64,000 nucleotides of DNA from a virus: positions 46,249 through 110,248 of the IMG/VR virus record IMGVR_UViG_3300032163_000001, one strand, 5' to 3'. Both the position numbers and the translations under genes were made by a program. Below are positions 3,230 to 25,043 of the stretch, one piece after another. The notes beneath the pieces were generated by a model. That model saw only the letters and a list, made by a program, of their open reading frames with translations, was not told the origin of the DNA and did no database searches. Each line of letters begins with the position of its first letter. Within the stretch, counting starts at the first letter, position 1.

Positions 3230-3240
3230 GAGGAGCAATC

Positions 3241-3429: not shown

Positions 3430-3431
3430 TT

Positions 3432-9046: not shown

Positions 9047-9072
9047 GTGATTAACTGGGGTGGGAGGGTTTA

Positions 9073-9318: not shown

Positions 9319-9324
9319 GAGAAA

Positions 9325-9982: not shown

Positions 9983-10387
9983 ATGTGCAACTTAGTACAC
10001 GAAGAATATAAACCGATTGAAAAATCAGGCTATGCATGGAAACTTTTCTCAAAAAATCTCCATGGAAATTTAGTCCAATTGTTTTCTAGAGAACTGTATA
10101 AGAAAGAAGATTCAGGATGGATTTTCTGGAACGATAGATATGGTTCTTATGGATCTACTGGAGATGGATTTTGTGCTTTTGCAAGCAAAGAAGAAGCAGA
10201 ACGAGCACTTCAAGATTTACAAAGAGGCATAACTGTTGGTGAATATTCAGATGCTACACTTCGAGAAATTCAGTATGAAGGAGGTCTTGCTTTACAAAAG
10301 GAACCTAGAATGGTATGTGGAAAAGTTTATGAAACAATAATAATTAGGAGGTTTAAGATCATTGAACAAGGAGAAGAAAATGGATAA
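9983..10387 (+). CDS. hypothetical protein
   Basis: Internal ATG with a strong RBS (AAAGGAGAG) is preferred over the ATG at 9908 given in the ORF track. Confidence 0.4.
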   Translation: MCNLVHEEYKPIEKSGYAWKLFSKNLHGNLVQLFSRELYKKEDSGWIFWNDRYGSYGSTGDGFCAFASKEEAERALQDLQRGITVGEYSDATLREIQYEGGLALQKEPRMVCGKVYETIIIRRFKIIEQGEENG

Positions 10388-11414
10388 GGTCCATATAGTT
10401 AGCTGGTTGCTAACTCGCAGGTGCAATCTTCACTGTTCATATTGTAGGATTTCTAGAAATTACAAGAAGTTTCCCCAAGCATACCCAAATTTAAAACACT
10501 ATGAACAAGATGAGATGAAAACTGAAGATATAATAGAAGCTCTTAAGAAATTGAAACAACACAATTCAAATGCTTTTCATATCTTCTACGGAGGTGAACC
10601 ACTTCTGAGGACTGATTTACCCCAAATAATTAATTTCTGTAACAAAGAAGAAATTAATTATACTATCATCACTAATAATAGTGATGAAGTACAAGGAGCT
10701 ATTGATGACTTATTTTTGAAGACAGATTACGTCACAGGATTAACTTCGTCAGTAGATCCAATTATAGTATCTGGAGAAAATATAACTACAGATCAGTACA
10801 AGAAAAGTGTTAAAGCTTTAGAAAGGTTTACTAAACTTAGAAGTGTAATTAAAGACTTGGTTGCAGAAATTACAGTTGATCGGGATTCAATTAATTGTTT
10901 GTATGACCTTGTAAAGATGTTAACAGATCTTGGAGTGAATAGTGATATAACAGTTATTGATATTGCTAAATCAGATTTCTATGATTTTTCAAATGTTACA
11001 GATAAGAATATTTTAGTTCCAAAGTCTCCACAAGTTTACGAAATCTTTCATAAGATAATCGATGATAAATTAGATGTTCATATGAAAGGTATCCTTTTAG
11101 ATAAAATATATGAAATATTACCGTCAGAACTAGATTGTAAGATTGAGAAAGATGTTCATAACTTAACAGTAGATGCTGATGGAAGTATTAGATTATGTTT
11201 AAGGATCAGGGGTATTTTTACTCCAGCTCATTTTAATATCGAAAACTTTGTGTTAGATTCTGGAGAACTCCACCCTGGTTTAAAACTTAGTTTAGCAAGA
11301 GATAAGAGAATGAGTTGTAGAAATTGTAACTGGTCGTGTATTATTATGAGTCAAATTATTTCTCATACTGAAAGTTATAATGATTTATTACTTCATACTG
11401 AGAAGAGAAATTAA
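10362..11414 (+). CDS. radical SAM enzyme (possible SPASM-like C-terminal Cys cluster)
   Basis: CNLHCSYC (Cx3Cx2C) near the N-terminus, FYGGEPLL glycine-rich SAM motif, C-terminal CRNCNWSC. Confidence 0.65.
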   Translation: MNKEKKMDKVHIVSWLLTRRCNLHCSYCRISRNYKKFPQAYPNLKHYEQDEMKTEDIIEALKKLKQHNSNAFHIFYGGEPLLRTDLPQIINFCNKEEINYTIITNNSDEVQGAIDDLFLKTDYVTGLTSSVDPIIVSGENITTDQYKKSVKALERFTKLRSVIKDLVAEITVDRDSINCLYDLVKMLTDLGVNSDITVIDIAKSDFYDFSNVTDKNILVPKSPQVYEIFHKIIDDKLDVHMKGILLDKIYEILPSELDCKIEKDVHNLTVDADGSIRLCLRIRGIFTPAHFNIENFVLDSGELHPGLKLSLARDKRMSCRNCNWSCIIMSQIISHTESYNDLLLHTEKRN

Positions 11415-12734: not shown

Positions 12735-13472
12735 ATGAGAGTTGAAGAAAGAGCTTTAACAGCAAAGTATAACCTTTATCAAAAAGTTGGAATTGAGAAT
12801 ACTATTACTAAAGATATGTTGAAAGATACTATTTGCAAAACTGGATTAGTTCCAACATCGCGTGTAATTAAATCTGTTATTGCGTATATGAGAGACCATA
12901 GACATTTAGGAGAACGGAATGAAAAGTACTATATAATCTATAGAAAGAAGGATAAAGCAAATCCAAAAAGTATCTCTAACTTACTTGAAAAGAAAGCAGA
13001 TATAAACTATTTTGTATCTAAACAAGGTTTATTTGATGACGACTATATTTATCCTGTTTTATTCAATAAGCTTGTTGAAAGTGTTCGAAAACTTAAATCT
13101 CATTTAAAAGAAAAAGGGGAATGTCTGATAAAATTTCAGACAATATCAGAGGAGGTTAAAATGGCAGACAATGTAATTCAATCAGCAATTGATTTCTTAA
13201 AGAAAGTAAAGTCTGAGGATTTCGTTACTATTAGGTTTCAGAAGAAAGATGGAACAATGAGAGTAATGAAATGTACTTTGAAATTCGATACAATTCCTGA
13301 TGGTGATAAACCTAAATCTCTGGATCTTCCAGAGATACTAAAATTGATCGATAAGAATATTCTTCATGTTTATGATATTGAGAAGAAAGCTTGGAGAAGT
13401 GTTCTATTCGATAAAGTACAATGGTTAGATACTCCTACTAAAGAAAGATTTTTTGTTAAGAAGAAAGTTTAG
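12735..13472 (+). CDS. hypothetical protein
   Basis: 245-aa ORF with RBS AGGAGGTG. Confidence 0.45.
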   Translation: MRVEERALTAKYNLYQKVGIENTITKDMLKDTICKTGLVPTSRVIKSVIAYMRDHRHLGERNEKYYIIYRKKDKANPKSISNLLEKKADINYFVSKQGLFDDDYIYPVLFNKLVESVRKLKSHLKEKGECLIKFQTISEEVKMADNVIQSAIDFLKKVKSEDFVTIRFQKKDGTMRVMKCTLKFDTIPDGDKPKSLDLPEILKLIDKNILHVYDIEKKAWRSVLFDKVQWLDTPTKERFFVKKKV

Positions 13473-13494
13473 TGAATGGAGGAAAATGTGAGAT

Positions 13495-14202
13495 ATGCGA
13501 ATAGTGAAAAATGTAATTGGGACACTCGAAATAGATTCGAATTCGAAAACGGTTTATGTAAACTCTTTAGATAAATGTCTTCTAAGATTAACGAAACTAA
13601 AATTCTTGAATTTTAATGAGAAATTTTCAACGCTAGATGGCTCTGTTGATGAGGGAGTCTCTTTTATTCAAGATCCGTTAAGTCCACAAACAGAAACGGA
13701 AAAAGTACTTCCTAGAATTATTTCTCTAGTTAGTTTTCTACTATTTGTAATAAATAGTGGAAAAGTCTCTAACGTTGATAAATTTCTTTTAGATTTTCAA
13801 AAGCAGTTGAAGAAAACATTTTGTAAGAATATGGAGGCTGAAAAGGCAATGACAATTTTAAGTGACCTTCTTAATGAAATGAAAAGCAATGATGAAGATG
13901 AGATTTTAAGGAAGATTTGTGATAAGATATCTGAACAAGAACTAAAAGGTTTACATAGTACTTTTTTACCAGTTGGTCCAAATGTTTTCTTAGCTTTAGA
14001 GTGTCCGGGAGATTTTCAAAGATATAATTTTCTGTGTATAGAACGAGAAGAGAAAAATACGTTTATTATTTCCCATTGGACACGTTTAAAGAAAGAGTCT
14101 GCAGTTACAAAGCGGTCTAAAGTATGGGAATGTAAGGGAATGTTAAACCGAGAAATTGTGGAAATGTATCTAGAAAAACTTAAGTTTTTAAGAGGAAACT
14201 AA
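13495..14202 (+). CDS. hypothetical protein
   Basis: 235-aa ORF. Confidence 0.4.
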   Translation: MRIVKNVIGTLEIDSNSKTVYVNSLDKCLLRLTKLKFLNFNEKFSTLDGSVDEGVSFIQDPLSPQTETEKVLPRIISLVSFLLFVINSGKVSNVDKFLLDFQKQLKKTFCKNMEAEKAMTILSDLLNEMKSNDEDEILRKICDKISEQELKGLHSTFLPVGPNVFLALECPGDFQRYNFLCIEREEKNTFIISHWTRLKKESAVTKRSKVWECKGMLNREIVEMYLEKLKFLRGN

Positions 14203-14223
14203 AGTTACAAAGGAGGTAAAGTT

Positions 14224-17001
14224 ATGGATGGTTTGGATCAAGTAATATCTGTAATGCCAGGTCCAGTTAGAGAATATCTAAGAGAGCTTGGAATCTCTGA
14301 AACAGAAGAGGAAGATTTACGTGAGGAAGAAGCACCACGAGCAGTAGATCAAAATGGAGAAGAAATAAAAGAAGTAAAAGAAATAGAAGAAGAACTTTGC
14401 GAGAGGTATTCTCATCAATTAGTTATTGACGAAAGATTTACAAGCTTAGTTCAAGTACACTCACCAACCGGAATAAGATCAGCTTATAAACCAGTTAAGA
14501 AAATCTTCACTGCATTTACAAAAGATATTTCGTCTTATATAGGAGGAAATTTAGAGACTTTTGAGTTGCTACCAAGAAACATAAGATTTTATGTTTCAAG
14601 AAGAGATATTAACTTATTCATAATAGAAGACGAACCATGTATTAGAACAATTAGAACGAATCAAAGATTTGAGAGTACAATAGAAAATTTGAGACTAACA
14701 GGAAAGTCGAAAGAATTTGGATACGAAAATTTCTTACAAGATATGAGTTTTGTAGAAGAGAGAAAAGCAAGTTTACGATCAGATGAAAGTGAAAGAGAAC
14801 GTGATACACTTGTTTCTGGAGAGACTATATATAGATTTAATTTATCTTTTCCTTATATAGTTTATATAGTTTCACAATTTGAAACAACTTATTTTGGCTT
14901 ATCAATCTATTATAGAACAAGTCCACTAACAGATTTAAAAGATTTACTTTTTAAGTGTAATCTTCTTAATATTGATGGTCGTGATGTATGTTGTTTAGGT
15001 ACTTTTAGTGTTCCAGCAAAGTTACCAATTAGTGAGAAAGTATCAATAGTAATTGGTCAGTTTTGGAACAGTATATTTAATACAGAGATTACAGAAAATT
15101 TTAGACTATATAGAGATAATCCACATCTTTGCACATTTTTACATTGGCAACACTATAGTCAAACTGATCCTTCGTTTATTTTAAGTGAGAATTTTATTCC
15201 AGTTTCTGAATCTCATCCGGATTTAAAATCTGTTATAGAATCTAAATTCTCAAGTTCGATGAACGATGAAGAAATAACTCATAATTCTATTGTTAGACTT
15301 TTACATTCTGATTGTTTACCAGCACTAGGAAAAGTTCAACGAAATTTGTTAGTTAGTGCATCACAAATGATAGTAGATGCAGATAATGGAATTACCTTAG
15401 ATTGTGGAGAAGAAATAGTCGTTGACGAAAAGAAATACTATATAGTTAACTTTTTAGCAAGTGGTGTGGGATCAGTAGTACAGCAAATAATAACCGAAGA
15501 TGAAGATCATAATATGAAGAAGTTTAAAGTAACTAGAAAACTAGTAGAAGAATTGATTAAAGGTATTAGAAGTAAAGATCATTTAGAATCTTGTGAAGTT
15601 TCAGGAAAACAAGTAAAGACTGGTGATTTAATTAATTTCCCAGAAGAAAAGCGTTTTAGTACTATTTCTAAACTTCTTAAGGATAGAGATGGAACAGTAC
15701 TTGCTAAATGTGGAAGAGACTTCTATATTCTTGACAACATTAAGTTTAATACAATGACTGAAAATGAAATAACAATTAATGGTGTAAAGCTTCAAAAGAA
15801 AGAAAAATATTTTATTTCTAGAGCGCGGATATATCTGCCAAATCTTCTTGAGGGAGAATTTAATTTAAGAACTTTTGAAGGACTAGGAAATGCTGGAGTT
15901 GATGAAATGGTTTTTAAATTTTCTGGTAACTATAATTTTAGCTTAGATGAAATGTATCGGTACCAATTTTTCAATGAAAGTTCAGTAGAAGAGTTATTAA
16001 TAAGTAGATATGGAATCAAATTATTTGAAAAAGGTTATAGAATTAAAAACAGTTGTTTATATGTTTCTGATCGTGGCGCTACATTAAGACCGGCTACAGT
16101 AAGAGAACAATCTGAAAGGATTGTACAAGAAAAGAGGTTATTCATTCCAAGTTTTGATTTTGATATAGACTTTAAAATTGGAGATAAAGTAATCGTAGCG
16201 AACTGGTCAAAACCTGAATCAATTTGTTGCATCCAAACTATAACAGATTTTGAGAAGTCAGATCAAAATGTAGTTAGTATAGTTACTGTTGATGATTCTG
16301 GAAATGTAACAAAAACAAAGTATATAGATTTTAATCGATCAACTATATTTACTGGGAGTATCAGAAAAATATCATCGGAGTTTGCTGGAATAAAGTCTGG
16401 TTTTAAAATGATTGCGAAAACGAAAGTTAGTAATTTCCTAAAGAAAGATTGTCACCAAGTGATTGGATTTTTAACAGACACTCCAAACGGTATTCCATTA
16501 ATGTTGTGTTCAAACCTATCTACACTTTGGGCTACAGAAGACAATCTTAATAATTTTAACTTTTTAGATCCTTCAAGTAGAACTTTTCTTAAATTTAGAG
16601 TTTCTCCTTTGGACATTAGTAATATCAAAATACAACCGGGTGATTTGGTCTGTTCAATGAAGTCTGCTAATTGTTGCACGACTAATATTTTCTTTGCATT
16701 GAATAGAATTTTCAAGACAGTAGCTGTTTTGAGGTGTCAAGCTAATTATAGTTTCTGTAGGTGTCCAGAAATTGCGAGAGCAAGTCATTCTCTATATGGA
16801 ATACCAAATCCAAGATTTACTATCAAACGTGGATTAGAAGAAGAAGGATTTGAAAGGTTAGATGTAGTTCCAAGTTTTTATAATACATATATAAAGAATA
16901 ATAGTGAACATAGAAATCTAATGCCTATTTGGGTAAGAAAGGAGGAAATATTTAATGTTCCCAATTTACTTAATGGACAAGAAAAAAGTTGTGGTAAATG
17001 A
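14224..17001 (+). CDS. large hypothetical protein (925 aa), immediately upstream of and overlapping the JAB gene
   Basis: RBS AAGGAGGTAAAG. Acidic N-terminus. No motif I can name. Confidence 0.5.
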   Translation: MDGLDQVISVMPGPVREYLRELGISETEEEDLREEEAPRAVDQNGEEIKEVKEIEEELCERYSHQLVIDERFTSLVQVHSPTGIRSAYKPVKKIFTAFTKDISSYIGGNLETFELLPRNIRFYVSRRDINLFIIEDEPCIRTIRTNQRFESTIENLRLTGKSKEFGYENFLQDMSFVEERKASLRSDESERERDTLVSGETIYRFNLSFPYIVYIVSQFETTYFGLSIYYRTSPLTDLKDLLFKCNLLNIDGRDVCCLGTFSVPAKLPISEKVSIVIGQFWNSIFNTEITENFRLYRDNPHLCTFLHWQHYSQTDPSFILSENFIPVSESHPDLKSVIESKFSSSMNDEEITHNSIVRLLHSDCLPALGKVQRNLLVSASQMIVDADNGITLDCGEEIVVDEKKYYIVNFLASGVGSVVQQIITEDEDHNMKKFKVTRKLVEELIKGIRSKDHLESCEVSGKQVKTGDLINFPEEKRFSTISKLLKDRDGTVLAKCGRDFYILDNIKFNTMTENEITINGVKLQKKEKYFISRARIYLPNLLEGEFNLRTFEGLGNAGVDEMVFKFSGNYNFSLDEMYRYQFFNESSVEELLISRYGIKLFEKGYRIKNSCLYVSDRGATLRPATVREQSERIVQEKRLFIPSFDFDIDFKIGDKVIVANWSKPESICCIQTITDFEKSDQNVVSIVTVDDSGNVTKTKYIDFNRSTIFTGSIRKISSEFAGIKSGFKMIAKTKVSNFLKKDCHQVIGFLTDTPNGIPLMLCSNLSTLWATEDNLNNFNFLDPSSRTFLKFRVSPLDISNIKIQPGDLVCSMKSANCCTTNIFFALNRIFKTVAVLRCQANYSFCRCPEIARASHSLYGIPNPRFTIKRGLEEEGFERLDVVPSFYNTYIKNNSEHRNLMPIWVRKEEIFNVPNLLNGQEKSCGK

Positions 17002-17899
17002 TGACATTTACTATTTAGTTGCAAAAAATGGAGTCTTTGTAAAGAAGAAACTAGGTCTTATTGAAAGTTTAACTCCAGTTGATGGAATACCATTTTTAGC
17101 GGGAACTGCTGTTCCTTATGCAAAAATGACAATTCCAAAAATTCCGAAAGAGATATTTTGTAAGATCTTATCTTTCTTTAGAAAAATTTATAGTTTATAT
17201 GAATCAGAATGTGAAGTATTTCTTCTTTATAATAGTTCAAAACAGAAGTTTAAAATAAGAGTTCCATATCAAAAAGTTTCGTATGCTGGTTGTGAAGCTG
17301 TAAGGATGGGGTCTCCAAAAGACTACGCAATAATTTGCTCCATCCATAGTCATTCAAATTTTTCTGCTTTTCATTCTGGGACAGATATTGATGATGAGGA
17401 ACATTTTGAAGGACTACATATTACGATCGGATATGTACCTGATCTAGAATTTAGTGCAGTCGCTTCTATTGTTTCTAACAAAAAAAGATTTAAAGTTAAT
17501 CCATTAGATTATATTGAAGGTTTAGTTCAAACATCTAATCAACGACGAGCTTTATATGCAGTATCTGGTTCGGATCAAATTGAGTTTGATCCAGAATGGC
17601 TGAAATTTGTTGAAAGAAAGTATCCAATGTTTGTACGTAACCAATTAGGATCACCATTTTATAGTTATGGACAATTTACATCAATTATGGATATTAAAGA
17701 TCTAATTAGCGATGTAAAAAATGAAAAAGGTACAAAAGTTAAAACAGCGACTTATAGACAGAATGATCCATGTTTAGTATGTCCATTTAAGAAAGAAACT
17801 CCTGAAGATGAGAAACTACTGAAAGAAAAATTTAGAGTAACTCCGGAAGAAGAACTTACTATAGATGAAGATTTATTTCCGGAGTATTATGGGATGTAA
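16955..17899 (+). CDS. JAB/MPN+ (JAMM) metallopeptidase
   Basis: ECEVFLLY (conserved Glu) followed by HSHSNFSAFHSGTDID, an exact HxHx7Sx2D JAMM motif. RBS AAGGAGGAAATA. Confidence 0.7.
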   Translation: MFPIYLMDKKKVVVNDDIYYLVAKNGVFVKKKLGLIESLTPVDGIPFLAGTAVPYAKMTIPKIPKEIFCKILSFFRKIYSLYESECEVFLLYNSSKQKFKIRVPYQKVSYAGCEAVRMGSPKDYAIICSIHSHSNFSAFHSGTDIDDEEHFEGLHITIGYVPDLEFSAVASIVSNKKRFKVNPLDYIEGLVQTSNQRRALYAVSGSDQIEFDPEWLKFVERKYPMFVRNQLGSPFYSYGQFTSIMDIKDLISDVKNEKGTKVKTATYRQNDPCLVCPFKKETPEDEKLLKEKFRVTPEEELTIDEDLFPEYYGM

Positions 17900-17900
17900 A

Positions 17901-18566
17901 ATGATTATCTATAAGGTCCAAAACAAAGTTAATGGTAAGATTTATATTGGACAAACTAAGTTTACGTTAGAAGAGAGAATTTTATACCATTTAAAAGTCG
18001 GAGATAGTCCAGCTTTTCATAATTCGATTAAAAAATATGGAATAGAAAATTTTGAAATTTCTATTATAGATTCAGCAAAAACTAAAGAAGAACTTAATGA
18101 CAAAGAAAAATACTGGATTAAGTTTTATGATTCTAATAATCGTATAAAAGGTTACAATTTGACAGATGGAGGTGATGGATTTAGCGGTTACGAATTTTCT
18201 GGAGAAAATAATCCAATGTACGGAAAACATCATTCAGAAGAAACTAAAGAAAATATTAGAAAAAGTAGACTTGGAAAACGTTTGCCTGATGAAGTAAAAG
18301 AGAAAATAAGGAGATCTATGACTGGAAAGAAGTTTCCAGAACATTCAAACATGATGAAAGGAGAAAATAACCCAGCGAAAAGATTAGAAGTAAGAGACAA
18401 AATAACTAAAGCTAAAACTGGAAAGTCAAATACGAAGATTGTAGGAGAGAATAATCCAACTAAAAGACCAGAAGTAAGGAAAAAAATTAGTGAATCATTA
18501 AAAGGAAAACCTTCTGGAACTAAAGGGAGACATTGGAAATGGAGACAAAAACTCAAAGGATTGTAA
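17901..18566 (+). CDS. GIY-YIG homing endonuclease with NUMOD3 repeats
   Basis: MIIYKVQNKVNGKIYIGQT. NPMYGKHHSEETKENIRKS plus further basic repeats. Begins 2 nt after the JAB stop and overlaps the E1 start. Confidence 0.75.
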   Translation: MIIYKVQNKVNGKIYIGQTKFTLEERILYHLKVGDSPAFHNSIKKYGIENFEISIIDSAKTKEELNDKEKYWIKFYDSNNRIKGYNLTDGGDGFSGYEFSGENNPMYGKHHSEETKENIRKSRLGKRLPDEVKEKIRRSMTGKKFPEHSNMMKGENNPAKRLEVRDKITKAKTGKSNTKIVGENNPTKRPEVRKKISESLKGKPSGTKGRHWKWRQKLKGL

Positions 18567-19264
18567 TTTGCGGACTGGGAGGAATCGGTTCTATACTTTC
18601 AGAACATGTATCAAGATTTTTAAACTATAATAAATCGTCAATATTTGAGGTATTATTAGTTGATGGGGATAAGTATAAACCAAAAAATCTAGAAAGACAA
18701 GACTTTATTACATTTGGAAATAAAGCAGAAATAAAGAAAAATGAACTGGGTAGTAAGTTCCCAAATATGATATTTGAAAGTTTCCCAAAATTTGTAAATA
18801 AAGAAGTAGTTAAAGATATAATTAAAGAAAAAGATATAGTTCTTCTATGTGTAGATAATCATAAAACAAGAAAAATCGTTTCAGATTATTGTTCTGATAT
18901 AAATGATATAGTTTTAATTTCTGGCGGAAACGATTTATTAAATGGCAATATTCAATTGTTTGTGAAAAAAAATGGAGAGAAACTACTTCCAAATTTGACA
19001 GATTATCATAGAGAAATACAAAATCCAGAAGATAAATCTCCAGAAGAAAAAAGTTGTCAAGAGTTAGCAGAAAGTGAACCACAATTGTATTTTACAAATT
19101 TAATGGTCGCGTCTTTTATGTGTGCATCTCTCTACAACGTTCTAGACGAAAGGTACACTTATTCAGAAGTTTATTTTGATATTACAACTATGAAAGCAGA
19201 CTCTAAAATTAGAAAAGTAAAAGAACAGAAGAAAAACTTTATCGAAGCTAGCGTTAGAATATAG
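18533..19264 (+). CDS. ThiF/MoeB-type E1-like adenylyltransferase
   Basis: RIVICGLGGIGS...LLVDGDKYKPKNLERQ (Rossmann fold plus NLxRQ arginine finger). DIVLLCVDNHKTR matches the E1 D-x-D-N motif. Confidence 0.7.
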   Translation: MEMETKTQRIVICGLGGIGSILSEHVSRFLNYNKSSIFEVLLVDGDKYKPKNLERQDFITFGNKAEIKKNELGSKFPNMIFESFPKFVNKEVVKDIIKEKDIVLLCVDNHKTRKIVSDYCSDINDIVLISGGNDLLNGNIQLFVKKNGEKLLPNLTDYHREIQNPEDKSPEEKSCQELAESEPQLYFTNLMVASFMCASLYNVLDERYTYSEVYFDITTMKADSKIRKVKEQKKNFIEASVRI

Positions 19265-19347
19265 TACTAAAATATCAAGGAAAAGGAGGTGAAAAATAGT
19301 TTCTATTTATCTTTCTCAAAAATTCTTAATAAAAGGAGATTATTGTT

Positions 19348-19773
19348 ATGGCATCTTATGAAGAAAGAACTGTTGCAGAACTTAGGGGAATTTGTCGTGA
19401 AAAAGGAATTCCTGGAATGTCGAAGGCTAGAAAAGATGATATTATAGAAGCTTTGAGAAGTCGCAAAGGATCATCTACACCTCGAGACAAAAAAGAAAAA
19501 ATTATAACTGAATTACATTCTTCTATCTTTAGATCTGATGGTCGTATTAGTAAGGTTGAAACTACAGTTCATGTGTCTGCTGGTGCAGCAAGTTTTAATC
19601 AACCTTTAGTTGGAAAGAATGTTGGACAGGCTGCAGAAATTTACAAACATATACTTAATGTTGATCCGCTAGAGATTAATGCTCTAGTTAATGGTAGAGC
19701 TGTCGAATCAGATTATGTTTTGAGATCTGGAGATAACCTTGAGTTTCTGAAACCTGCTTCAAGAAAAGGATAG
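19348..19773 (+). CDS. candidate ubiquitin-like modifier: Rho-N/SAP-like N-domain plus ThiS/MoaD-like beta-grasp ending in Gly
   Basis: N-terminal TVAELRGICREKGIPGMSKARKDDIIEAL (Rho_N-like). C-terminal INALVNGRAVESDYVLRSGDNLEFLKPASRKG* follows the ThiS pattern (N..V.R...L.DGD.I), with a terminal Gly. Confidence 0.45.
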   Translation: MASYEERTVAELRGICREKGIPGMSKARKDDIIEALRSRKGSSTPRDKKEKIITELHSSIFRSDGRISKVETTVHVSAGAASFNQPLVGKNVGQAAEIYKHILNVDPLEINALVNGRAVESDYVLRSGDNLEFLKPASRKG

Positions 19774-19786
19774 AAAAATAGTAAAA

Positions 19787-19850
19787 AAGGCTTGGAATTT
19801 TTTAGAAAGTATGTTATAATACTTTTTATAAGTTCCAAGCCTTCTTTTTC
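19787..19850 (+). terminator. 11-bp perfect inverted repeat (AAGGCTTGGAA/TTCCAAGCCTT) with 35-nt loop and T-tract
   Basis: Arms at 19787-19797 and 19833-19843, followed by CTTTTTC. Lies between the Ubl and the second E1-like gene. Confidence 0.4.
19792..19820 (+). promoter_or_regulatory. sigma-A-like promoter: TTGGAA, 17-nt spacer, extended -10 TGTTATAAT
   Basis: -35 element at 19792-19797, TG at 19812-19813, TATAAT at 19815-19820. Sits inside the loop of the inverted repeat above. Confidence 0.35.
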
Positions 19851-19866
19851 TAGAAAGGAGGTAGGA

Positions 19867-20763
19867 GTGAGAAAAGTTTCTTCAGTTGCAGTAGTTGGTC
19901 TAGGTAGTTTAGGTAGTTTTCTTTCTGATAGTTTATCAAAGGTTGAAACAATCGAAAAATTAGTTCTTATAGATTATGATACAGTTCAAGAAAAGAACTT
20001 GATCAACTCTGTTTATAGAAAAATAGACGTTGAAAGATTTAAAGTAAATGCTATGAGAGATATTATATTATCTAACAACCCTTGTCTGAAAGTATTGGTT
20101 GTTCAAGATAAGTATGATAATTTGAGAAGAACTTCTTCAAGGTGGTTACTTGTTCGTCCTGATGTAGATTTAGTAGTAGATTGTAGAGATTTTACATATG
20201 ATAGAACTGATGAAGTAGATGTTAGAATGTATATAACTTCTAGATACTTAGTATTAGATTGTAGAAAAGATGTTAGTTACAATAAACACTATGAAGGAAT
20301 GTACACTTCTCAACTAACTAAGACAGATTTAAGAAATGCAGCGCTTACAACTTGCTTATTAATTCAGAATGGATTGATTTTTGATTTAATTGAAAAGCAG
20401 TTAGTGCACAAAGTTGAACTAGATTATATTTGTAGGAAGACATCAGAAGTAATCCAAAATAAAGGAGATATGATTTTAGATTTAAAAGAAGATACTTCTA
20501 GCTTCTTAAACTTACCAGAATGTTCAGATCGTATTTTGGATGTGAACAAGAAACATAAGTTAACAATGTACTTTGGAGATAAAGAAAATTCTTTAATTTG
20601 GAAAGAAGTTCCACGAAATTCTCTACTAAATATTGAGGATGTTATTTCGTGCTTACGATCTATTATTAAACTTCCTTTTGTCTTTAACTATTATATTATT
20701 CTTCTAAAAAATAATTCCGATGGCTTCTATATTGAACTCATCCCAGAAACTGGAGCTGCCTAA
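19867..20763 (+). CDS. second ThiF/E1-like protein, probably degenerate (arginine finger missing)
   Basis: VAVVGLGSLGS...LIDYDTVQEKNLINSVY has NLINS in place of NLxRQ. DLVVDCRDFTYDRT is retained. GTG start with RBS AAAGGAGGTAGGA. Confidence 0.6.
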   Translation: MRKVSSVAVVGLGSLGSFLSDSLSKVETIEKLVLIDYDTVQEKNLINSVYRKIDVERFKVNAMRDIILSNNPCLKVLVVQDKYDNLRRTSSRWLLVRPDVDLVVDCRDFTYDRTDEVDVRMYITSRYLVLDCRKDVSYNKHYEGMYTSQLTKTDLRNAALTTCLLIQNGLIFDLIEKQLVHKVELDYICRKTSEVIQNKGDMILDLKEDTSSFLNLPECSDRILDVNKKHKLTMYFGDKENSLIWKEVPRNSLLNIEDVISCLRSIIKLPFVFNYYIILLKNNSDGFYIELIPETGAA

Positions 20764-20821
20764 AGATGTACTAAAATTTCTAAAAGAAGAAGTTGGGGAT
20801 AGTAATGGAAAGGAGGAGATT

Positions 20822-21175
20822 ATGATACACATCTTGAGAAAAAACATTGAGAAGTCTCCATTAGTTCCTGATACAATAATTCATAAAGATAAAGTCTTTA
20901 ATATTACATCTGTTGATCCAGAGTTTATAATAAATAAATATGAACTAATTTTTAACGATAATATTTTGAAGGGTGTTAGATTAGTTAATAGTAGACATCC
21001 AAACTGTGACCCAGAGAATGGAATGTTTTGTTTACCAGAAGGAATAAAAGATAGTATTTTTACTAAAGAAATGTATGAAAGATTAAAGTATATTATGAGA
21101 ACTTTTAATCTCGACAACTGTTATTTTATGCCATGGGATCGGTGTACATATACAAGGAGGTTTTTAGATGGATGA
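20822..21175 (+). CDS. UBC-like E2 conjugating enzyme (small)
   Basis: SRHPNCDPENGMFCLPEGI has the HPN-x(8-9)-C-L spacing of E2 active sites (compare HPNINSNGSICL). ATG with RBS AAGGAGGAG, preferred over the 20720 start in the track. Confidence 0.55.
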   Translation: MIHILRKNIEKSPLVPDTIIHKDKVFNITSVDPEFIINKYELIFNDNILKGVRLVNSRHPNCDPENGMFCLPEGIKDSIFTKEMYERLKYIMRTFNLDNCYFMPWDRCTYTRRFLDG

Positions 21176-21368
21176 AGAGAAACCCAAACAAAATGAAGTT
21201 AAAGAAATTTTAGATGACGTTGAAAGTTTGTTTAAAAAACTATTACATAAAGTTTCTGATGTTCTAGTTGGAGAAAGTAGAAAGAAACTAGAAAAAGTAT
21301 GTTCAGATAAAAATACAATTATTCATTATCATCGTAAAGTAAAAGAATTGGGGAGGAAAGATGAGTAA
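21168..21368 (+). CDS. hypothetical small protein
   Basis: 66-aa ORF with overlapping start. Confidence 0.35.
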   Translation: MDEEKPKQNEVKEILDDVESLFKKLLHKVSDVLVGESRKKLEKVCSDKNTIIHYHRKVKELGRKDE

Positions 21369-21744
21369 TGGAAATATTATAAATCAAGAATTTCATGATG
21401 CTCTTGTTGATTTAGTAAGAGATATTGTTCAAGAAGATCAACTAAACGAAGATCAAATTAGAGACATTGCATGTGATGCAGCAACTGAGGCAGCAGAAGA
21501 AGTACTAGATAAAAAAGAGATAAACGAAGATATGATAAAAGAAGTTTTGCATCGAGAACTAGATGAAGAAATTGAAGAGAGAGTTGGAGAATCTATAAAG
21601 AACAGAGAAAGACAAATCACTAAGGAAGAGGTTAAAGAAATAATTGAGGAAATTCGAGAAGATATAGACCAAATGATTTCCGAACAAGTTAAACATCATT
21701 TTAATATTTTAGCAACTTTTATGTTAGAACAGTTTAAGAAATAA
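21361..21744 (+). CDS. hypothetical highly acidic protein
   Basis: 127 aa, Glu/Asp-rich helical sequence. Confidence 0.4.
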   Translation: MSNGNIINQEFHDALVDLVRDIVQEDQLNEDQIRDIACDAATEAAEEVLDKKEINEDMIKEVLHRELDEEIEERVGESIKNRERQITKEEVKEIIEEIREDIDQMISEQVKHHFNILATFMLEQFKK

Positions 21745-21756
21745 GGAGATAAAATA

Positions 21757-21981
21757 ATGAGGATTGTATATTTTATGAGGAGAGGTAATAGACTTTTAAT
21801 TTCTGATAAAAAATTATTTGCAAAAGGAGATACTGAATTAACTGTTGGATTTCCGCGTTTTCGACTTGAAGCAAAAGGTCAATTAACAGGAGAAGGGGAT
21901 GATATTGAAAAAATGATGGGAAAAATGGTAGAAGATAAATCTTACAAAATGGTCTTGGATAAATGGCCTACAGAAGAATAA
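21757..21981 (+). CDS. hypothetical small protein
   Basis: 74-aa ORF with RBS AAGGAGA. Confidence 0.35.
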   Translation: MRIVYFMRRGNRLLISDKKLFAKGDTELTVGFPRFRLEAKGQLTGEGDDIEKMMGKMVEDKSYKMVLDKWPTEE

Positions 21982-22003
21982 CTAATTGAAAAGGAGGTAG
22001 CTC

Positions 22004-24715
22004 ATGCCAGAACTGTTGGACATAGCAAAATTTTGTGAACACCTTAAAGAAGTATCGTCGATAAAAATAATGGATAGAAATGGAAAGTTCCATTCAGAGG
22101 GCTTATTTTCTGAACAGATTTTTGGCCCAATTAGAAACTATACATGCCAGTGTGGTATTTATTATGGTATATCAAGGTCAGGTGGTACTTGTTCTATATG
22201 CGACGTAGATATAGTTAATAGTTATGAAAGGAGAAGTAGATTTGCTAAAATAGTTTTACCTTTTAAAGTTGTAAACCCTTTGTTCTATGATCTTCTAGTT
22301 TATGCGGGGGGAAGTAACTTAATGGAATCAATTGACTTACTGATGAAAAACGAAAAAAGTGTTATGTATAAAGATGAAGGTGAATATGCAGTAACTACTG
22401 ACCATATAGATACATCAAAATTTGGTAGAGTTTGGGATCGAACAGAAGCCATTTATGAAATTGTTAATAGTTTAGCTGATGATTGTATAAAGTATAATGA
22501 TTCTCCTACTTGGGCTTTTGTAAAAGCTAATATAAGTAACTTACTAATTAGAGATATAATTGTACTTGCTCCAGATTTAAGACCAGTTACAAGGTCGTCT
22601 AATAAAAATAATCAAGTGGTAGACGAAGTTAATAGGTACTACATTCAAATTTTAACTAAAAAGACAATTATAAAAGATTCTATAGTAGAAGTTAATAGTA
22701 ATAAAGAATTGTTCTATCAATATTGGAGACAAGTCCAAAAAGACGTAAACGAATTATATACACATATTCTTAGTAAATTATCTAAGAAAGAGGGATTAAT
22801 TAGAGGTAATATTTTAGGTAAGAGGATTGACTTTTCTGGAAGGGCTGTTATTGTACCAGATCCAACGTTAACATTGAATGAATGTATATTACCATATACT
22901 ATGGCTTTAGAACTATATAAACTACAAATATCAAAGAGATTGATAGATCTTGGTAAATTTAAGTTTTTAAATAAAGCAATTGATTTTGTAGATGAATGTA
23001 TAGAATACAAAGACCCACAACTGTTCGATACAGTGAATGAAATTACTCAAGATGAAATGTGTTTGTTGAACAGACAACCATCTTTACATCGATTAAGTAT
23101 GGTGGGTTTTAAAATTAAATTGACAATGGATGATGTTATTAAAATTCACCCTCTAGTATGTTCTGGTTTTAATGCTGATTTCGATGGGGATCAAATGGCT
23201 GCTTATATTCCTGTTAGTAAAGAAGCTAAAAAAGAAATAATAGATAAGTTTCTAGTTACCAAGAATTTTGTTAATCCAGCTAATGGAAGTTTGACTACTA
23301 TTCCATCACAAGATATAATATTAGGAATTTACCTCCTAACGTCAAATCAATTTCCAGAGCTAACTAAAGAAGTTGAATATAAAGGAAAACTTATTCCGGA
23401 GTCAGTTAAAATATTTAACGAGTGTTTACCATTTGATTATTCGTTAGTTGAGGGAGTAGTTACTAGTAATAAGTTATTAAAAATATTAAACAATATAAAA
23501 GATACATATCCAGAAGGAGTAACAGCAATTGCTTTAGATAGAATTAAAGACTTAGGTTTTAAATATTCTACGTTATATGGTTGTACTATTTCTTTAGATA
23601 GTTGCGAAATTGAAACTTCGGATGAGTTTAAAAAGTTTCTCTATTGTTCAGATGATGTAACAGATCAGTTAACAAAAGTTTCTAGTGAAGAAACAGAACA
23701 GTTTTTAAAAGATAACTTTAAATATGCTTATATGGTTCAGTCTGGGTCAAGAGGGAACTGGGATCAAATTAGACAGTTAATTTTAACTAGAGGGTTTGTT
23801 TCTAATTTTGATGGAGAGATTGTTCCAACTCCAATAAAGAATAGTTTACTAGATGGACTAACAAGAGAGGAGTTTTTCAATTCAACTTATGGTTGTAGGA
23901 AAGGTTTACTTGATGTTGCTTTAAACACTGGAACATCAGGTTATCTTTCAAGAAAACTAGTCTTTGCTTGTGCAAATCTCCAAGTTGATCCAAGTTTAGA
24001 AGATTGTGGAACCACGGATTATTTAAATGTAGATGTTTCTAGTATAAAGAAAGCTAAGATGTTAGTAGATCGTTATTATTTTGATGGTTCCAAATTAGAG
24101 AAAATTACGAAAGAAAATTGTGAAGAACTAGTTGGGAAAAGAATTAAACTAAGAAGTCCAATATATTGTAAGAATTATGATTTATGTCATACATGTTATG
24201 GAGATCTTTTCAAACACACAAGTAGTAGATTCGCCGGAATTTTAGCAGCTCAGTCTTTAGGTGAATGTAATACTCAGCTTATTCTTAGAGTTTTTCATAC
24301 TAGTGGAGTTGCTGCTACTAGAGGTGAGCACGAAGAAATGAGGCAAAAAGATGTTATTGTTGACTTAAGTACTGCATCTAATTTACTACATAAAATTGAT
24401 AAGAATGAGACTCCAGAGAATTTGGTTTCCGAATTATTTGATGTTTACAATATGAGTAGAGATATTTATCATGTGCATTTTGAATGTGTAGTAAGTCAAT
24501 TACTTTGGGATGGTCCGTATAAATGGAGGATGTTAGATAATAGAGATAAAGTCAAACCTATATTTTGCAGTATTCAAAGTATTCCAAGTAAAGAGAGTTG
24601 GTTACTTGGATTAGGGTTTTCCAATCCAAAAACTCATATTATAAAAGGTTTAGTGTACAGAGGTAATTACAAAGGAATTTTCGACCAAATTTTGTTAGGA
24701 GAAAAGTTTTGTTAG
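22004..24715 (+). CDS. rpoC: multisubunit RNA polymerase beta'-like subunit (compact, 903 aa)
   Basis: Catalytic NADFDGDQMA motif. Zn-finger-like CQCG...CSIC near the N-terminus. RBS AAGGAGGTAG. Confidence 0.85.
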   Translation: MPELLDIAKFCEHLKEVSSIKIMDRNGKFHSEGLFSEQIFGPIRNYTCQCGIYYGISRSGGTCSICDVDIVNSYERRSRFAKIVLPFKVVNPLFYDLLVYAGGSNLMESIDLLMKNEKSVMYKDEGEYAVTTDHIDTSKFGRVWDRTEAIYEIVNSLADDCIKYNDSPTWAFVKANISNLLIRDIIVLAPDLRPVTRSSNKNNQVVDEVNRYYIQILTKKTIIKDSIVEVNSNKELFYQYWRQVQKDVNELYTHILSKLSKKEGLIRGNILGKRIDFSGRAVIVPDPTLTLNECILPYTMALELYKLQISKRLIDLGKFKFLNKAIDFVDECIEYKDPQLFDTVNEITQDEMCLLNRQPSLHRLSMVGFKIKLTMDDVIKIHPLVCSGFNADFDGDQMAAYIPVSKEAKKEIIDKFLVTKNFVNPANGSLTTIPSQDIILGIYLLTSNQFPELTKEVEYKGKLIPESVKIFNECLPFDYSLVEGVVTSNKLLKILNNIKDTYPEGVTAIALDRIKDLGFKYSTLYGCTISLDSCEIETSDEFKKFLYCSDDVTDQLTKVSSEETEQFLKDNFKYAYMVQSGSRGNWDQIRQLILTRGFVSNFDGEIVPTPIKNSLLDGLTREEFFNSTYGCRKGLLDVALNTGTSGYLSRKLVFACANLQVDPSLEDCGTTDYLNVDVSSIKKAKMLVDRYYFDGSKLEKITKENCEELVGKRIKLRSPIYCKNYDLCHTCYGDLFKHTSSRFAGILAAQSLGECNTQLILRVFHTSGVAATRGEHEEMRQKDVIVDLSTASNLLHKIDKNETPENLVSELFDVYNMSRDIYHVHFECVVSQLLWDGPYKWRMLDNRDKVKPIFCSIQSIPSKESWLLGLGFSNPKTHIIKGLVYRGNYKGIFDQILLGEKFC

Positions 24716-24725
24716 GAGAATCGCT

Positions 24726-25043
24726 ATGCCTAAAATACCTAAAGAAAAAGAGCCTATTGATTATCATAATTTATCAACTTTTAAACACAGAGTAAAAGAG
24801 TTTAGTTACATAGCAGAGACATTGCGAGATCTAAGGAAACAAATTCTTAAAGATTTGAGAACTATTGATTTTAACTTAGAAGAAGTTCTTCCATATTTTT
24901 ATCGTAAACAGAGGGAGGGTTATACATCTGATATTACTAACACTCACTTAGTTGCTGATTGTGAATACGTTATTTCTAAATATGAGCGAATCTTAAAACA
25001 ACATGAAATAGAAATAGTTCTTTCAAATGGTGTACCCATTTAA
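24726..25043 (+). CDS. hypothetical protein between the RNAP subunit genes
   Basis: 105-aa ORF. Confidence 0.4.
   Translation: MPKIPKEKEPIDYHNLSTFKHRVKEFSYIAETLRDLRKQILKDLRTIDFNLEEVLPYFYRKQREGYTSDITNTHLVADCEYVISKYERILKQHEIEIVLSNGVPI

Follow-up and report, generated by a model that had tools for sequence, protein, structure and literature searches.

A candidate ubiquitin-like conjugation module with two E1-like and two E2-like proteins beside the RNA polymerase genes of an uncultured jumbo phage

The window analysed here, a stretch of 64,000 nucleotides from an uncultured jumbo phage, contains a block of ubiquitin-like conjugation genes encoding a ubiquitin-like (Ubl) tag, two E1-like proteins, two E2-like proteins and a JAB peptidase, which extends from nt 14224, not 16955, to 21175. 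Early replication and transcription genes surround the block, which adjoins the RNA polymerase encoded by the phage, and the phage origin claimed by the initial annotation is shown by the presence of terminase and baseplate genes. As judged from the sequences, it probably constitutes a phage-encoded system for Ubl conjugation and deconjugation, built on a PRTRC-type core plus a degenerate E1 paralogue (E1') and a small E2-like protein (mini-E2). Ubl systems of such kind are otherwise known from bacterial antiphage defence, conjugative elements and plasmids, and the phage version had not been studied before. The features of the block are as follows.

14224..17001, plus strand: 925-aa protein with a predicted N-terminal Prok-E2_D/PRTRC_B-like E2 domain (HMM)
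16955..17899, plus strand: JAB/JAMM metallopeptidase, 314 aa (Pfam Prok-JAB, NCBIfam PRTRC_A, motif)
17865-18566 (ORF), plus strand: GIY-YIG + NUMOD3 homing endonuclease (Pfam, phrog_314)
18533..19264, plus strand: E1, ThiF-type adenylating enzyme, 241-243 aa (Pfam ThiF, NCBIfam, PADLOC and PDB profiles)
19348..19773, plus strand: Ubl modifier, 141 aa (beta-grasp fold; weak ThiS/MoaD/TGS matches)
19792..20763, plus strand: E1' (Pfam ThiF, N-terminal half)
20822..21175 (listed ORF 20720-21175), plus strand: mini-E2, 117 aa (UBC-like fold, HPN..C)

Domain identities and conserved motifs

Hallmark motifs had been described in five adjacent, co-oriented genes at 16955-21175. Every motif quoted was found present and the genes are indeed co-oriented, although the interval holds six ORFs, the GIY-YIG homing endonuclease having been overlooked. 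Since the motifs of JAB, E1, Ubl, E1' and mini-E2 vary little or not at all among divergent homologues, and profile searches and structure models agree with the motif-based identities, these are no chance matches and the domain identities are established.

The JAB gene, the first 47 nt of which overlap the 3' end of the 925-aa gene, encodes the JAMM signature H131-S-H133-x7-S141-x2-D144 (nt 17345-17386), the upstream Glu85 and a conserved C-terminal PCxxC, the catalytic motif being invariant in seven orthologues. It matched NCBIfam PRTRC_A (7.1e-8, profile positions 28-173 of 192), far below the equivalog cutoff, and Pfam Prok-JAB with 3e-4 and 21 bits, below the cutoff of 25. The homing endonuclease (Pfam GIY-YIG 3e-10, NUMOD3 1.2e-13; phrog_314 3.8e-41) separates JAB from E1 and likely starts at Met13, nt 17901, right behind the JAB stop. 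In the gene tables of seven relatives it is absent from this position, and JAB and E1 abut or overlap; it is an insertion and no part of the conjugation system.

E1, probably starting at ATG 18539, contains GLGGIGS (residues 12-18 from that ATG), NLERQ (50-54) and VDNHKTRK (105-112), as had been reported, as well as an invariant Cys173 in KSCQEL, a candidate for the thioester cysteine of the crossover loop; its catalytic residues are invariant among homologues. It matched Pfam ThiF with 5.7e-22, PADLOC Cap2-type E1-E2 models with 3.7e-7, and PDB profiles of MoeB, Uba4, UBA5 and 9egb/9egc. The best-scoring NCBIfam models were ThiF and MoeB, and PRTRC_ThiF aligned over almost its whole profile (9.6e-11), with a score far below the equivalog cutoff.

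The 141-aa Ubl consists of a Rho_N/SAP-like two-helix domain (~residues 5-40), a linker and a beta-grasp domain (~residues 53-141), the fold proposed for its C-terminal half, with weak profile matches to ThiS (20.6 bits vs a cutoff of 22.5), MoaD and TGS. It ends in Gly as described (...ASRKG), and the invariant Lys140-Gly141 closes the beta-grasp in all 63 homologues, 21 of which carry extra residues past KG that would need trimming. Natural precursor forms of a Gly-terminated Ubl, extended by a Cys or by a NUMOD3-like tail, exist.

Such a ThiS/MoaD-like protein could instead be adenylated and thiocarboxylated by E1 to act as a sulfur donor rather than a tag; along with the products of nearby radical-SAM and GTP-cyclohydrolase genes, it would then serve to make a phage-specific modification of nucleotides, tRNA or DNA. 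Consistent with this are the weak matches just mentioned, one source that names a Ubl homologue 'molybdopterin converting factor small subunit', the top ThiF/MoeB models of E1 (yet PRTRC_ThiF spans nearly its whole profile), a radical-SAM gene at 10362-11414 and GCHY-1 genes downstream in relatives. We regard a sulfur carrier as very unlikely, however, in view of a terminus that is KG and not GG, the fused SAP/Rho_N domain, and the presence of two invariant-Cys E2-like proteins and a JAB peptidase that would have no role in sulfur transfer. Besides, the scan of genes surrounding the module revealed no rhodanese, cysteine desulfurase or sulfurtransferase, and no biosynthetic neighbours accompany the same E2-JAB-E1-Ubl cassette in a Chloroflexi conjugative element.

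E1' most likely starts at GTG 19867, behind AAGGAGG, giving a 298-aa protein of the same length as in public data. It keeps the Rossmann/Gly-loop half (GLGSLGS, DCRDF), and has NLINS, with Asn-Ser where NLxRQ has Arg-Gln, all as initially noted. Pfam ThiF matched only residues 30-148 (2.1e-13), PDB profiles aligned only with MoeB residues 32-136, and hhalign paired E1' with E1 over ~100 columns at 96% probability. The ThiF matches support the E1-like fold proposed for both proteins, and the PADLOC Cap2-type E1-E2 models scored E1' (4.1e-12) better than E1. The C-terminal ~190 aa belong to no known family, and no similarity between them and the Ubl family or any PDB sequence could be detected; they end in a nearly invariant PETGAA, the pattern [LIV][LI]P[ED][TD]G[AS]A closing 116 of 120 homologues. 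None of the 119 homologues (of 120) in which the NLxRQ motif was found has Arg at that position, and no invariant crossover Cys occurs among them; on these grounds E1' appears unlikely to adenylate anything by itself.

For mini-E2, ATG 20822, with AAGGAGG 7 nt upstream, is the most likely start, yielding 117 aa in line with a ~110-aa family. The fold search identified a minimal UBC-like fold, as had been proposed, and the HPN..CL signature stands, except that its spacing is x8 and not x9: H59-P60-N61-x8-C70-L-P (nt 20996-21037, HPNCDPENGMFCLP). HPN-x8-C is invariant, including Cys70 and His59 in 73 sequences. Neither mini-E2 nor JAB matched any PADLOC model.

The 925-aa upstream protein had been suggested as a mere possible target, whereas it appears to be part of the machinery, its E2-like domain covering ~residues 75-330 (nt ~14446-15213) with the motif N249-x7-C257-L-G (nt 14959-15000). 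In the 12 to 14 sequences compared, N249, C257 and G259 do not vary. The assignment to the Prok-E2_D/PRTRC_B type is transitive: an HMM of seven phage orthologues matched ~290-aa standalone proteins located in Ubl-X-JAB-E1 clusters of Chloroflexi MAGs (1e-24 to 2e-31), and these proteins in turn match NCBIfam PRTRC_B (6e-6) as well as Pfam Prok-E2_D (2.7e-7, 30.9 bits, the cutoff being 25). The direct match of residues 207-291 to Prok-E2_D was weak (0.064), no PDB sequence matched the protein, and its ~600-aa C-terminal region contained no recognisable family. On this assignment, the system comprises two E2-like as well as two E1-like proteins.

Alternatively, the E2-like and E1'-like proteins might be dead relics or scaffolds, in the manner of UEV and RWD domains, leaving JAB, E1 and Ubl as the only active components, for instance as a reversible regulator of a single target. 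The degeneracy of E1' and the cultured Bacillus jumbo phages with only a JAB-E1 pair detectable would fit, but the invariance of Cys70 and His59 in mini-E2, and of Cys257 in the E2_D domain, makes this reading very doubtful. Catalytically dead UEV and RWD domains typically lack the Cys.

Co-conservation and distribution

Synteny was assessed in related phage loci seeded only on RNA polymerase beta', counting those with enough upstream DNA (n=49). Of these, 47 have all six genes (E2_D, JAB, E1, Ubl, E1', mini-E2) with unchanged gene order, and the genes are thus co-conserved in related phages; in shorter loci lacking upstream DNA, the genes nearest beta' are kept in nearly all. One exception (L102) has none of the six genes at the locus, and the other (L086) has E1'-mini-E2 directly upstream of beta', with the core cassette missing from the stretch that separates the radical-SAM block from E1'. 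The phage clade matches the "mReC" jumbo phages, whose describing paper includes ThiF and JAB matches in its supplement and nowhere discusses them.

Since the whole ~10-kb region is syntenic within the clade, unrelated flanking genes included, phage co-conservation alone is no proof that E1' and mini-E2 are linked to the core. The four-gene core E2_D-JAB-E1-Ubl, however, also occurs in the Chloroflexi conjugative element and in a CPR (Candidate Phyla Radiation) chromosome, and these four genes are therefore linked independently of phage synteny. By sequence likeness, the core appears to be a PRTRC-type cassette, and E1' and mini-E2 the addition of the phage clade.

These distributions also bear on the possibility of two separate units, in which the core would act alone and E1' and mini-E2 would work autonomously on the PETG(A/S)A tail of E1' itself, its C-terminal domain being a fused Ubl-like or Cap2-substrate-like moiety that is trimmed to Gly and conjugated. 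The L086 arrangement argues for some autonomy of the pair, and the conserved tail, the preference of Cap2-type models for E1' and the cellular genomes holding the core without E1'/mini-E2 point the same way, as do the one or two extra genes that separate Ubl from E1' in relatives and a promoter-like site in the corresponding gap of the window (19792-19820). Nevertheless, promoter-like sites are no commoner in the window than expected by chance (46 found vs 44 expected), the L086 core may be encoded at another place on the 92-kb contig, and E1' lacks both the NLxRQ arginine and an invariant crossover cysteine as well as any detectable similarity of its C-terminal domain to the Ubl family or to PDB sequences; we consider two separate units rather unlikely.

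Putative conjugation route

For the single system that we favour, we infer a cascade in which JAB would expose the C-terminal Gly of those Ubl forms that are encoded with additional residues, and would later reverse conjugation. E1 (241 aa) would adenylate Gly141 and then take Ubl onto its invariant crossover-loop Cys, from which Ubl may move to an E2 Cys (Cys257 in the 925-aa protein, Cys70 in mini-E2, or both). Substrates might be selected by the ~600-aa C-terminal region of the large upstream protein, Ubl being finally attached to lysines of target proteins. As its ATP-contacting Arg is lost, E1' is most likely a non-adenylating partner or scaffold, which could form a pseudo-dimer with E1 and/or dock mini-E2; an E1/E1' heterodimer, as initially proposed, would be plausible.

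Our best guess for the biological role would be that, during takeover, the module tags host or phage proteins associated with DNA or RNA, or that it counters host Ubl-based immunity. A nucleic-acid-binding domain of the SAP/Rho_N type is part of the Ubl, and the module lies in a replication/transcription setting.

Relationship to known systems

The closest counterpart is the PRTRC cassette (ParB-related, ThiF-related; NCBIfam TIGR03735-03742), operon type 6d of Iyer, Burroughs and Aravind (PMC1779556). The initial annotation had taken the module for an uncharacterised system, which holds for the unstudied variant with E1' and mini-E2 but not for the core kind, predicted computationally in 2006; in the titles and abstracts surveyed, PRTRC was found in genome-annotation contexts only, with no mechanistic study. 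Both have a PRTRC_A-like JAB extended at its N-terminus, a PRTRC_ThiF-like E1 of the ThiF type that stands alone and lacks a rhodanese domain, a small Ubl ending in Gly, and a Prok-E2_D/PRTRC_B-like E2 protein in which the Cys is conserved and the canonical His is missing; both are carried on mobile elements. In contrast to PRTRC, the phage E2_D continues into ~600 extra residues, a SAP/Rho_N domain is present in the Ubl, E1' and an HPN-Cys mini-E2 are added, and the module forms a conserved jumbo-phage block adjoining RNA polymerase genes; all scores lie far under the equivalog cutoffs, and the scan of proteins revealed neither ParB nor any of PRTRC C, D, E and F.

Cultured Bacillus jumbo phages (vB_BceM_WH1 gp215-216, vB_BauM_KLEB27-3 gp195-194, Edson) carry adjacent homologues of JAB (1e-16) and E1 (1e-25 to 2e-27), KLEB27-3 gp195 being annotated with a PRTRC_A domain; HMMs revealed no Ubl, E2_D, E1' or mini-E2 within 6 kb of these pairs.

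The ISG15-like antiphage system BilABCD likewise combines Ubl, E1, UBC-like E2 and JAB, its E1 (BilD) being a single polypeptide with fused inactive and active adenylation modules (IAD-AAD) and a mobile ~80-aa CYS domain (PMC10557695). The phage has instead two small separate ThiF-like proteins with a crossover-loop Cys only, and Bil is a host defence whereas a phage carries the present module; the libraries used gave no match to Bil components at the sequence level. Type II CBASS Cap2/Cap3 resembles the module in the adenylation domains of E1 and E1', which match Cap2-type 'E1-E2' models of PADLOC, and in its JAB partner, and differs by its E2-E1 fusion, CD-NTase and effector, all missing here. 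With its conserved C-terminal tail, E1' brings to mind the CD-NTases, whose C-terminus is conjugated.

The pairing of a competent adenylation subunit with a degenerate paralogue from a separate gene is reminiscent, as an analogy only, of NAE1-UBA3 and SAE1-SAE2. Unlike these, E1 and E1' have no N-terminal arginine-finger helix, since the Gly loop begins within ~10 residues of the N-terminus, nor a large Cys domain, and the extra C-terminal domain lies on the degenerate subunit and not on the active one. Finally, the tail assembly proteins of Lambda/T1, a Ubl with C-terminal Gly (TAPI) and a JAB + NlpC/P60 protein (TAPK) (PMC1779556), parallel the adjoining phage Ubl and JAB peptidase; those are encoded in tail-assembly operons without E1/E2, whereas the module described here combines a full machinery with a location in a replication/transcription block.

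Gene organization and conservation of the module

The region under study comprises seven co-oriented ORFs on the plus strand, 14224-21175.

ORFs of the module (coordinates, strand, product)
14224-17001, +, 925-aa protein
16955-17899, +, JAB peptidase, 314 aa, overlapping the gene of the 925-aa protein by 47 nt
17865-18566, +, GIY-YIG/NUMOD3 homing endonuclease, 233 aa (Pfam GIY-YIG 3e-10, NUMOD3 1.2e-13; phrog_314 3.8e-41)
18533-19264, +, ThiF-type E1
19348-19773, +, 141-aa protein with Gly at its C-terminus (Ubl)
19792-20763, +, second, degenerate ThiF-like protein (E1')
20720-21175, +, small ORF encoding a UBC-like protein (mini-E2)

According to the positions of ribosome-binding sites, translation likely starts at GTG 19867 for E1' (298 aa, the same length as in the public-data call), at ATG 20822 for mini-E2 (117 aa) and at ATG 18539 for E1. 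A scan for promoters and terminators yielded counts equal to chance. All the motifs quoted in the initial annotation were found in the window sequence, though the spacing of the mini-E2 signature reads HPN-x8-C instead of HPN-x9-C. The five genes it named, from JAB to mini-E2, are indeed present and co-oriented, but they are not all adjacent, since a free-standing homing endonuclease located exactly between JAB and E1, whose ORF overlaps both the 3' end of JAB and the start of E1, had been overlooked. Gene tables of seven relatives show no gene at this position, with JAB and E1 abutting or overlapping, and the endonuclease is therefore treated as a mobile insertion. In the related locus L012, a NUMOD3 gene sits after mini-E2 instead.

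The surroundings of the module contain a number of recognizable phage genes, including a virion protein.

Other features of the window (coordinates, strand where recorded, product)
3713-5920, SbcC-like ATPase
7976-9046, RNA ligase
10362-11414, radical-SAM enzyme
12735-14202, 235-aa protein and WYL_2-related 245-aa protein, upstream of the module and conserved in relatives
21361-21744, acidic 127-aa protein just upstream of beta', its C-terminal part conserved in most relatives
22004-24715, RNA polymerase (RNAP) subunit beta', full-length, with NADFDGDQM
25061-28150, RNAP subunit beta, full-length, adjacent to beta'
28698-30041, SPFH protein
42176-43804, T4-type large terminase (phrog_2, 2e-32)
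44720-48175, VanY-domain protein, 1151 aa
50624-53122, -, baseplate wedge protein (3e-30)

The coding strand switches near 49.4 kb, GC content is ~30% but higher at 46-48 kb and 60-62 kb, and the window contains no tRNAs. No close relative was found among cultured phages, against which megablast of positions 14000-24800 gave no match, and scanning viral contigs with E1 as the sole query confirmed no relatives. The "mReC" lineage of Weinheimer and Aylward 2020 is recognized by Caudovirales contigs with an adjacent full-length beta' carrying NADFDGD and beta, an arrangement found in the window, and related IMG/VR loci share metagenomes (3300017989, 3300001782) with published mReC contigs; the window matches this lineage. 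ThiF, JAB and ubiquitin are absent from the main text of that paper. In its supplementary table, ThiF occurs 35 times and Prok-JAB 9 times among the annotations of mReC contigs, beside the RNAP genes, so that pieces of the module were automatically annotated there and left uninterpreted.

Co-conservation was assessed using beta' alone as seed, which retrieved 80 IMG/VR loci, 49 of which extend 9 kb or more upstream. In 47 of these 49 loci the six families are complete and ordered E2_D (the 925-aa protein, named after its E2-type domain)–JAB–E1–Ubl–E1'–mini-E2, so that the genes pass the test of co-conservation in related phages set by the initial annotation. In the 47 complete loci mini-E2 ends a median of 386 nt upstream of the beta' ORF, and nearly all of the loci with shorter upstream sequence keep exactly the genes nearest to beta'. 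One exception, L086 (IMGVR_UViG_3300005573_000857, 1-10000), carries only E1' and mini-E2, with no core gene between the radical-SAM block and E1', while the other, L102 (IMGVR_UViG_3300029268_000036, 1-10000), has none of the six families upstream of beta'. In L093 and L081, the ORF following E1' was unrecognized by the mini-E2 HMM. Conservation across hundreds of homologues excludes a chance cluster of motifs. However, flanking genes unrelated to the module are syntenic as well, the whole ~10-kb region behaving as a syntenic block, and synteny alone therefore does not tie E1' and mini-E2 functionally to the other four genes. These four are tied together independently, because the cassette recurs in cellular mobile elements.

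A probable PRTRC-type core encoding E2_D, JAB, E1 and Ubl

Scanning species-representative genomes with the Ubl alignment returned nine loci. Two of them (L014, L015) are MAG-binned contigs of 28% GC with all six genes arranged as in the window. Six Chloroflexi MAG loci (L016-L019, L021 and L022; GC 65-71%, contigs up to 533 kb) show the order Ubl–X–JAB–E1, and a Moraniibacteriota (CPR) MAG (L020) the order X–JAB–E1–Ubl, X being a ~290-aa protein. The L019 cassette lies inside an integrative conjugative element with a TraG-like ATPase, coupling protein, relaxase, M23/SLT hydrolase and serine recombinase, and that of L020 is located on the chromosome, in an islet flanked by a Bro-N gene and ychF. 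X matches positions ~50-270 of the HMM of the phage 925-aa family (1e-24 to 2e-31). It also matches two E2-type profiles, Pfam Prok-E2_D (PF14460) with 2.7e-7 and 30.9 bits, where the cutoff is 25, and NCBIfam PRTRC_B with 6e-6. The direct match of the 925-aa protein to Prok-E2_D is weak (0.064, residues 207-291), and PDB profile searches were empty both for the entire protein and for its N-terminal domain. The joint alignment reveals an invariant N249-x7-C257-x-G259, which reads NIDGRDVCCLG in the window with Leu at the position of His, and which in sequence terms appears to be an E2-type active-site loop lacking the canonical His. Transitive profile evidence and the invariant Cys thus support the assignment as E2. 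The initial annotation had considered this protein a possible target of modification; its N-terminal Prok-E2_D/PRTRC_B-type domain places it among the machinery.

This arrangement resembles a set predicted in other genomes. Operon type 6d of Iyer et al. (PMC1779556) joins an N-terminally extended JAB to an E1, a small Ubl ending in Gly and, lacking the canonical His, an E2-like protein, with which the E2_D domain of the 925-aa protein agrees; TIGRFAM/NCBIfam names the set the PRTRC cassette. Like that of the set, the Ubl of the window is a small beta-grasp protein with a conserved C-terminal Gly. No NCBIfam match to a ParB-family protein or to PRTRC D, E or F appeared in the eight proteins scanned between 12735 and 21175. 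JAB matches PRTRC_A (TIGR03735) with 7.1e-8; the alignment spans profile positions 28-173 of 192, and its 32.2 bits compare with a curated cutoff of 101.8. From its sequence, JAB is best described as a homologue of PRTRC_A, not an equivalog. It also matches Prok-JAB (3e-4), and all of seven orthologues share its Glu85 and HxH-x7-S-x2-D. Likewise, E1 matches PRTRC_ThiF (TIGR03736) with 9.6e-11 over positions 7-236 of 245, but with 41.5 bits against a cutoff of 144.75. E1 contains no rhodanese domain, and its invariant features are the Gly loop, NxERQ, VDNH and one Cys in the crossover region. Its best matches among solved structures (3.6e-10) are PDB 9egb, 9egc and 9egd, entries of 7 to 14 chains each for a protein of 264 aa named 'THIF-type NAD/FAD binding fold domain-containing protein'; a literature search found no paper describing 9EGB/9EGC/9EGD. 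The cellular four-gene cassettes include the E2_D-type X, and the profile relationships indicate that the module consists of a PRTRC-type core (E2_D fusion, JAB, E1 and Ubl) plus a clade-specific pair, E1' and mini-E2.

The Ubl family comprises 408 members at 90% clustering. Its N-terminus is a Rho_N/SAP-type helical domain (3.6e-7). As for the C-terminal half, weak matches to four beta-grasp families and an AF2 model from a 63-sequence alignment, showing a beta-beta-alpha-beta-beta domain (mean pLDDT 75.6), agree with the beta-grasp initially proposed. The domain ends in ...LEFLKPAGxKG in all 63 aligned homologues. The stop follows directly after the Gly of KG in 42 of the 63, after a single additional Cys in 12 and after two additional residues in 2, while 7 carry a basic NUMOD3-like tail of 65-76 aa beyond KG. 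Such precursor forms are the mark of a modifier that needs a peptidase to free its Gly. Tailed homologues include P0003-P0006, P0207 and P0229 (e.g. L003 10001-10633, L011 10001-10630). NUMOD3 repeats are a DNA-binding motif of homing endonucleases, and the tail could either belong naturally to the precursor as an extension or be what is left of an endonuclease that was captured.

These features also bear on whether the Ubl might act as a sulfur carrier instead of a protein modifier. We regard this role as highly improbable, because two Cys-bearing E2-like proteins and a JAB accompany the Ubl, its C-terminus is Lys-Gly and not Gly-Gly in 63/63 homologues (ThiS scoring 20.6 bits against a cutoff of 22.5), and the neighbours scanned include no sulfurtransferase partner.

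The clade-specific pair E1' and mini-E2

Both E1-like proteins had initially been credited with the ThiF fold, which Pfam confirms with 5.7e-22 for E1, above cutoff, and 2.1e-13 for E1'. ThiF matches only residues 30-148 of E1', whose alignment with MoeB is confined to MoeB residues 32-136, and hhalign of E1' against E1 gave 96%, indicating at the sequence level that both proteins are related. The Arg of NLxRQ is found in none of the 119 E1' homologues in which the motif was located (120 in the set), most of them reading LKNSI. The C-terminus of E1' is PETGAA (20743-20760), and [LIV][LI]P[ED][TD]G[AS]A occurs at the extreme C-terminus of 116 of the 120 homologues, far more strictly conserved than the remainder of the C-terminal domain. 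The tail could be Ubl-like or serve as a pseudo-substrate. A sortase LPXTG signal was considered and rejected, because sortase signals need a hydrophobic segment and the motif, two residues from the C-terminus, leaves no room for it.

Mini-E2 was unrecognized by Pfam, NCBIfam, PHROGs and PADLOC, Foldseek against the BFVD viral structure library returned nothing significant, and tblastn found no match in cultured phages. Exhaustive searches nonetheless yielded 151 cluster representatives of ~110 aa. Across 73 sequences, H59-P60-N61-x8-C70 never varies in its His and Cys and keeps Pro and Asn in at least 90%, which corresponds to the canonical UBC signature of HPN with the catalytic Cys 7-8 residues downstream. 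The AF2 model (pLDDT 93.4) displays a beta-meander, an active-site loop and one long helix, and as modelled the protein appears to be a minimal UBC core. The full UBC fold comprises an N-terminal helix, a meander of four strands and three helices at the C-terminus. A PDB profile search aligned its HPN...C with the active site of the Pex4 E2, non-significantly (E 0.55). Comparison of the E2_D domain with the mini-E2 family by hhalign was also non-significant (E 0.09), with N..C, FN.D and W in register, which would be compatible with a paralogy in which mini-E2 is a reduced form of the E2_D domain and gives at most a hint in that direction. The shared register, N-x7/8-C-L, FN.D and W, falls at 14959-15000 in E2_D and at 20996-21037 in mini-E2. 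In each of two very large proteins, P0127 (1876 aa) and P0155 (1294 aa), the mini-E2 family matches weakly six times over; P0127 comes from a contig of 48% GC, and the gene at L013 6001-11631 does not translate to it.

The main alternative to participation in a common cascade is that E1' and mini-E2 form an autonomous unit acting on the own tail of E1', an explanation we hold to be unlikely. Such a unit would fit the occurrence of the pair without the core in L086, the changing distance from Ubl to E1' and the conservation of the tail of E1' (116/120 homologues), yet profile comparisons give no evidence of a beta-grasp in the C-terminal domain of E1', since hhalign against the Ubl family detected no similarity and the PDB profile search was empty.

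Proposed cascade and comparison with known systems

Taken together, the data make it probable that the module encodes a real cascade of Ubl conjugation and deconjugation. JAB would trim Ubl precursors and reverse conjugates, and E1 would adenylate Gly141 of the Ubl and form a thioester on its invariant Cys. One or both of the E2-type cysteines, Cys257 in the E2_D fusion and Cys70 in mini-E2, would then take over the Ubl and pass it to target lysines. E1', without the ATP-contacting Arg, would be a non-adenylating partner or scaffold. The SAP/Rho_N domain of the Ubl and the setting of the block, with replication and transcription genes around it, tentatively suggest nucleic-acid-associated targets or a counter-defence role.

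A more elaborate form of this cascade can be envisaged, in which active E1 and degenerate E1' together make up a split, heterodimeric E1 as in eukaryotes, the C-terminal domain of E1' with its invariant PETGAA is a ubiquitin-fold or E2-docking module handing the Ubl to mini-E2, the giant E2_D fusion is a substrate-selecting E2/E3 hybrid, and this cascade of two branches serves, while the phage takes over the cell, to attach the DNA/RNA-binding (SAP/Rho_N) Ubl to proteins associated with nucleic acids, be they of the host or of the phage. We doubt that all these elements hold jointly. If they did, this would be a ubiquitin-like system encoded and used offensively by a virus in bacteria. A split E1/E1' would parallel NAE1–UBA3 and SAE1–SAE2, and BilD is a bacterial E1 that combines an inactive and an active adenylation module in fused form (PMC10557695).

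To our knowledge, bacterial Ubl conjugation has been experimentally shown so far only in host antiphage defences, namely type II CBASS and Bil, both characterized since 2023. The system had initially been considered uncharacterized, which holds insofar as the literature searched contained no description of a phage-encoded E1-E2-Ubl system; its kind is already known, since E1/E2/JAB/Ubl cassettes of mobile elements (PRTRC; conjugative elements, plasmids) were predicted computationally in 2006 (PMC1779556). In the titles and abstracts covered, PRTRC occurs in genome-annotation contexts only. JAB, ThiF and Ubl are unmentioned in a comparative genomics review of jumbo phages, and a 2026 review counts ubiquitin signalling among the accessory functions of giant eukaryotic viruses, jumbo phages not being listed.

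What is new is a complete system in a virus of bacteria, conserved across a large clade, with both E1-like and E2-like components doubled, an E2 of ~110 aa in which the eukaryotic HPN-Cys signature is preserved and which has no counterpart in Pfam, NCBIfam, PHROGs, PADLOC or BFVD, an E2_D domain fused to a ~600-aa region of no recognized family, and a Ubl bearing a SAP/Rho_N domain. The tag, its activating enzyme, the conjugating enzymes and the peptidase are all on the virus side, near-universal in a widespread uncultured clade of jumbo phages with their own multisubunit RNA polymerase. Protein tagging may accordingly serve phages for attack or counter-defence. The split pair of active and degenerate E1-like proteins, the minimal E2 and the E2 fusion bear on the diversification of E1-E2 cascades. 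The module is compact and amenable to experiments, with small soluble proteins, clear catalytic residues and natural precursor forms. Adjacent homologous JAB (PRTRC_A-like)–ThiF pairs occur in the cultured Bacillus jumbo phages vB_BceM_WH1 (gp215-216) and vB_BauM_KLEB27-3 (gp195-194), without detectable Ubl or E2 nearby, and these phages offer a possible culturable entry point.

In type II CBASS (Cap2/Cap3), an E2-E1 fusion is encoded beside a CD-NTase and an effector. PADLOC E1-E2 models match only the adenylation domains of the window proteins, which include no E2-E1 fusion, and no CD-NTase was found among those scanned. The likeness to BilABCD lies in the joint presence of Ubl, UBC-like E2 and JAB, a shared parts list and not membership in the same sequence families. 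The E1 of BilABCD is one polypeptide in which an inactive adenylation domain is fused to an active one and a CYS domain is inserted (PMC10557695), whereas the window encodes two separate E1-like proteins of 241 and 298 aa, with the E1 Cys in a short crossover segment.
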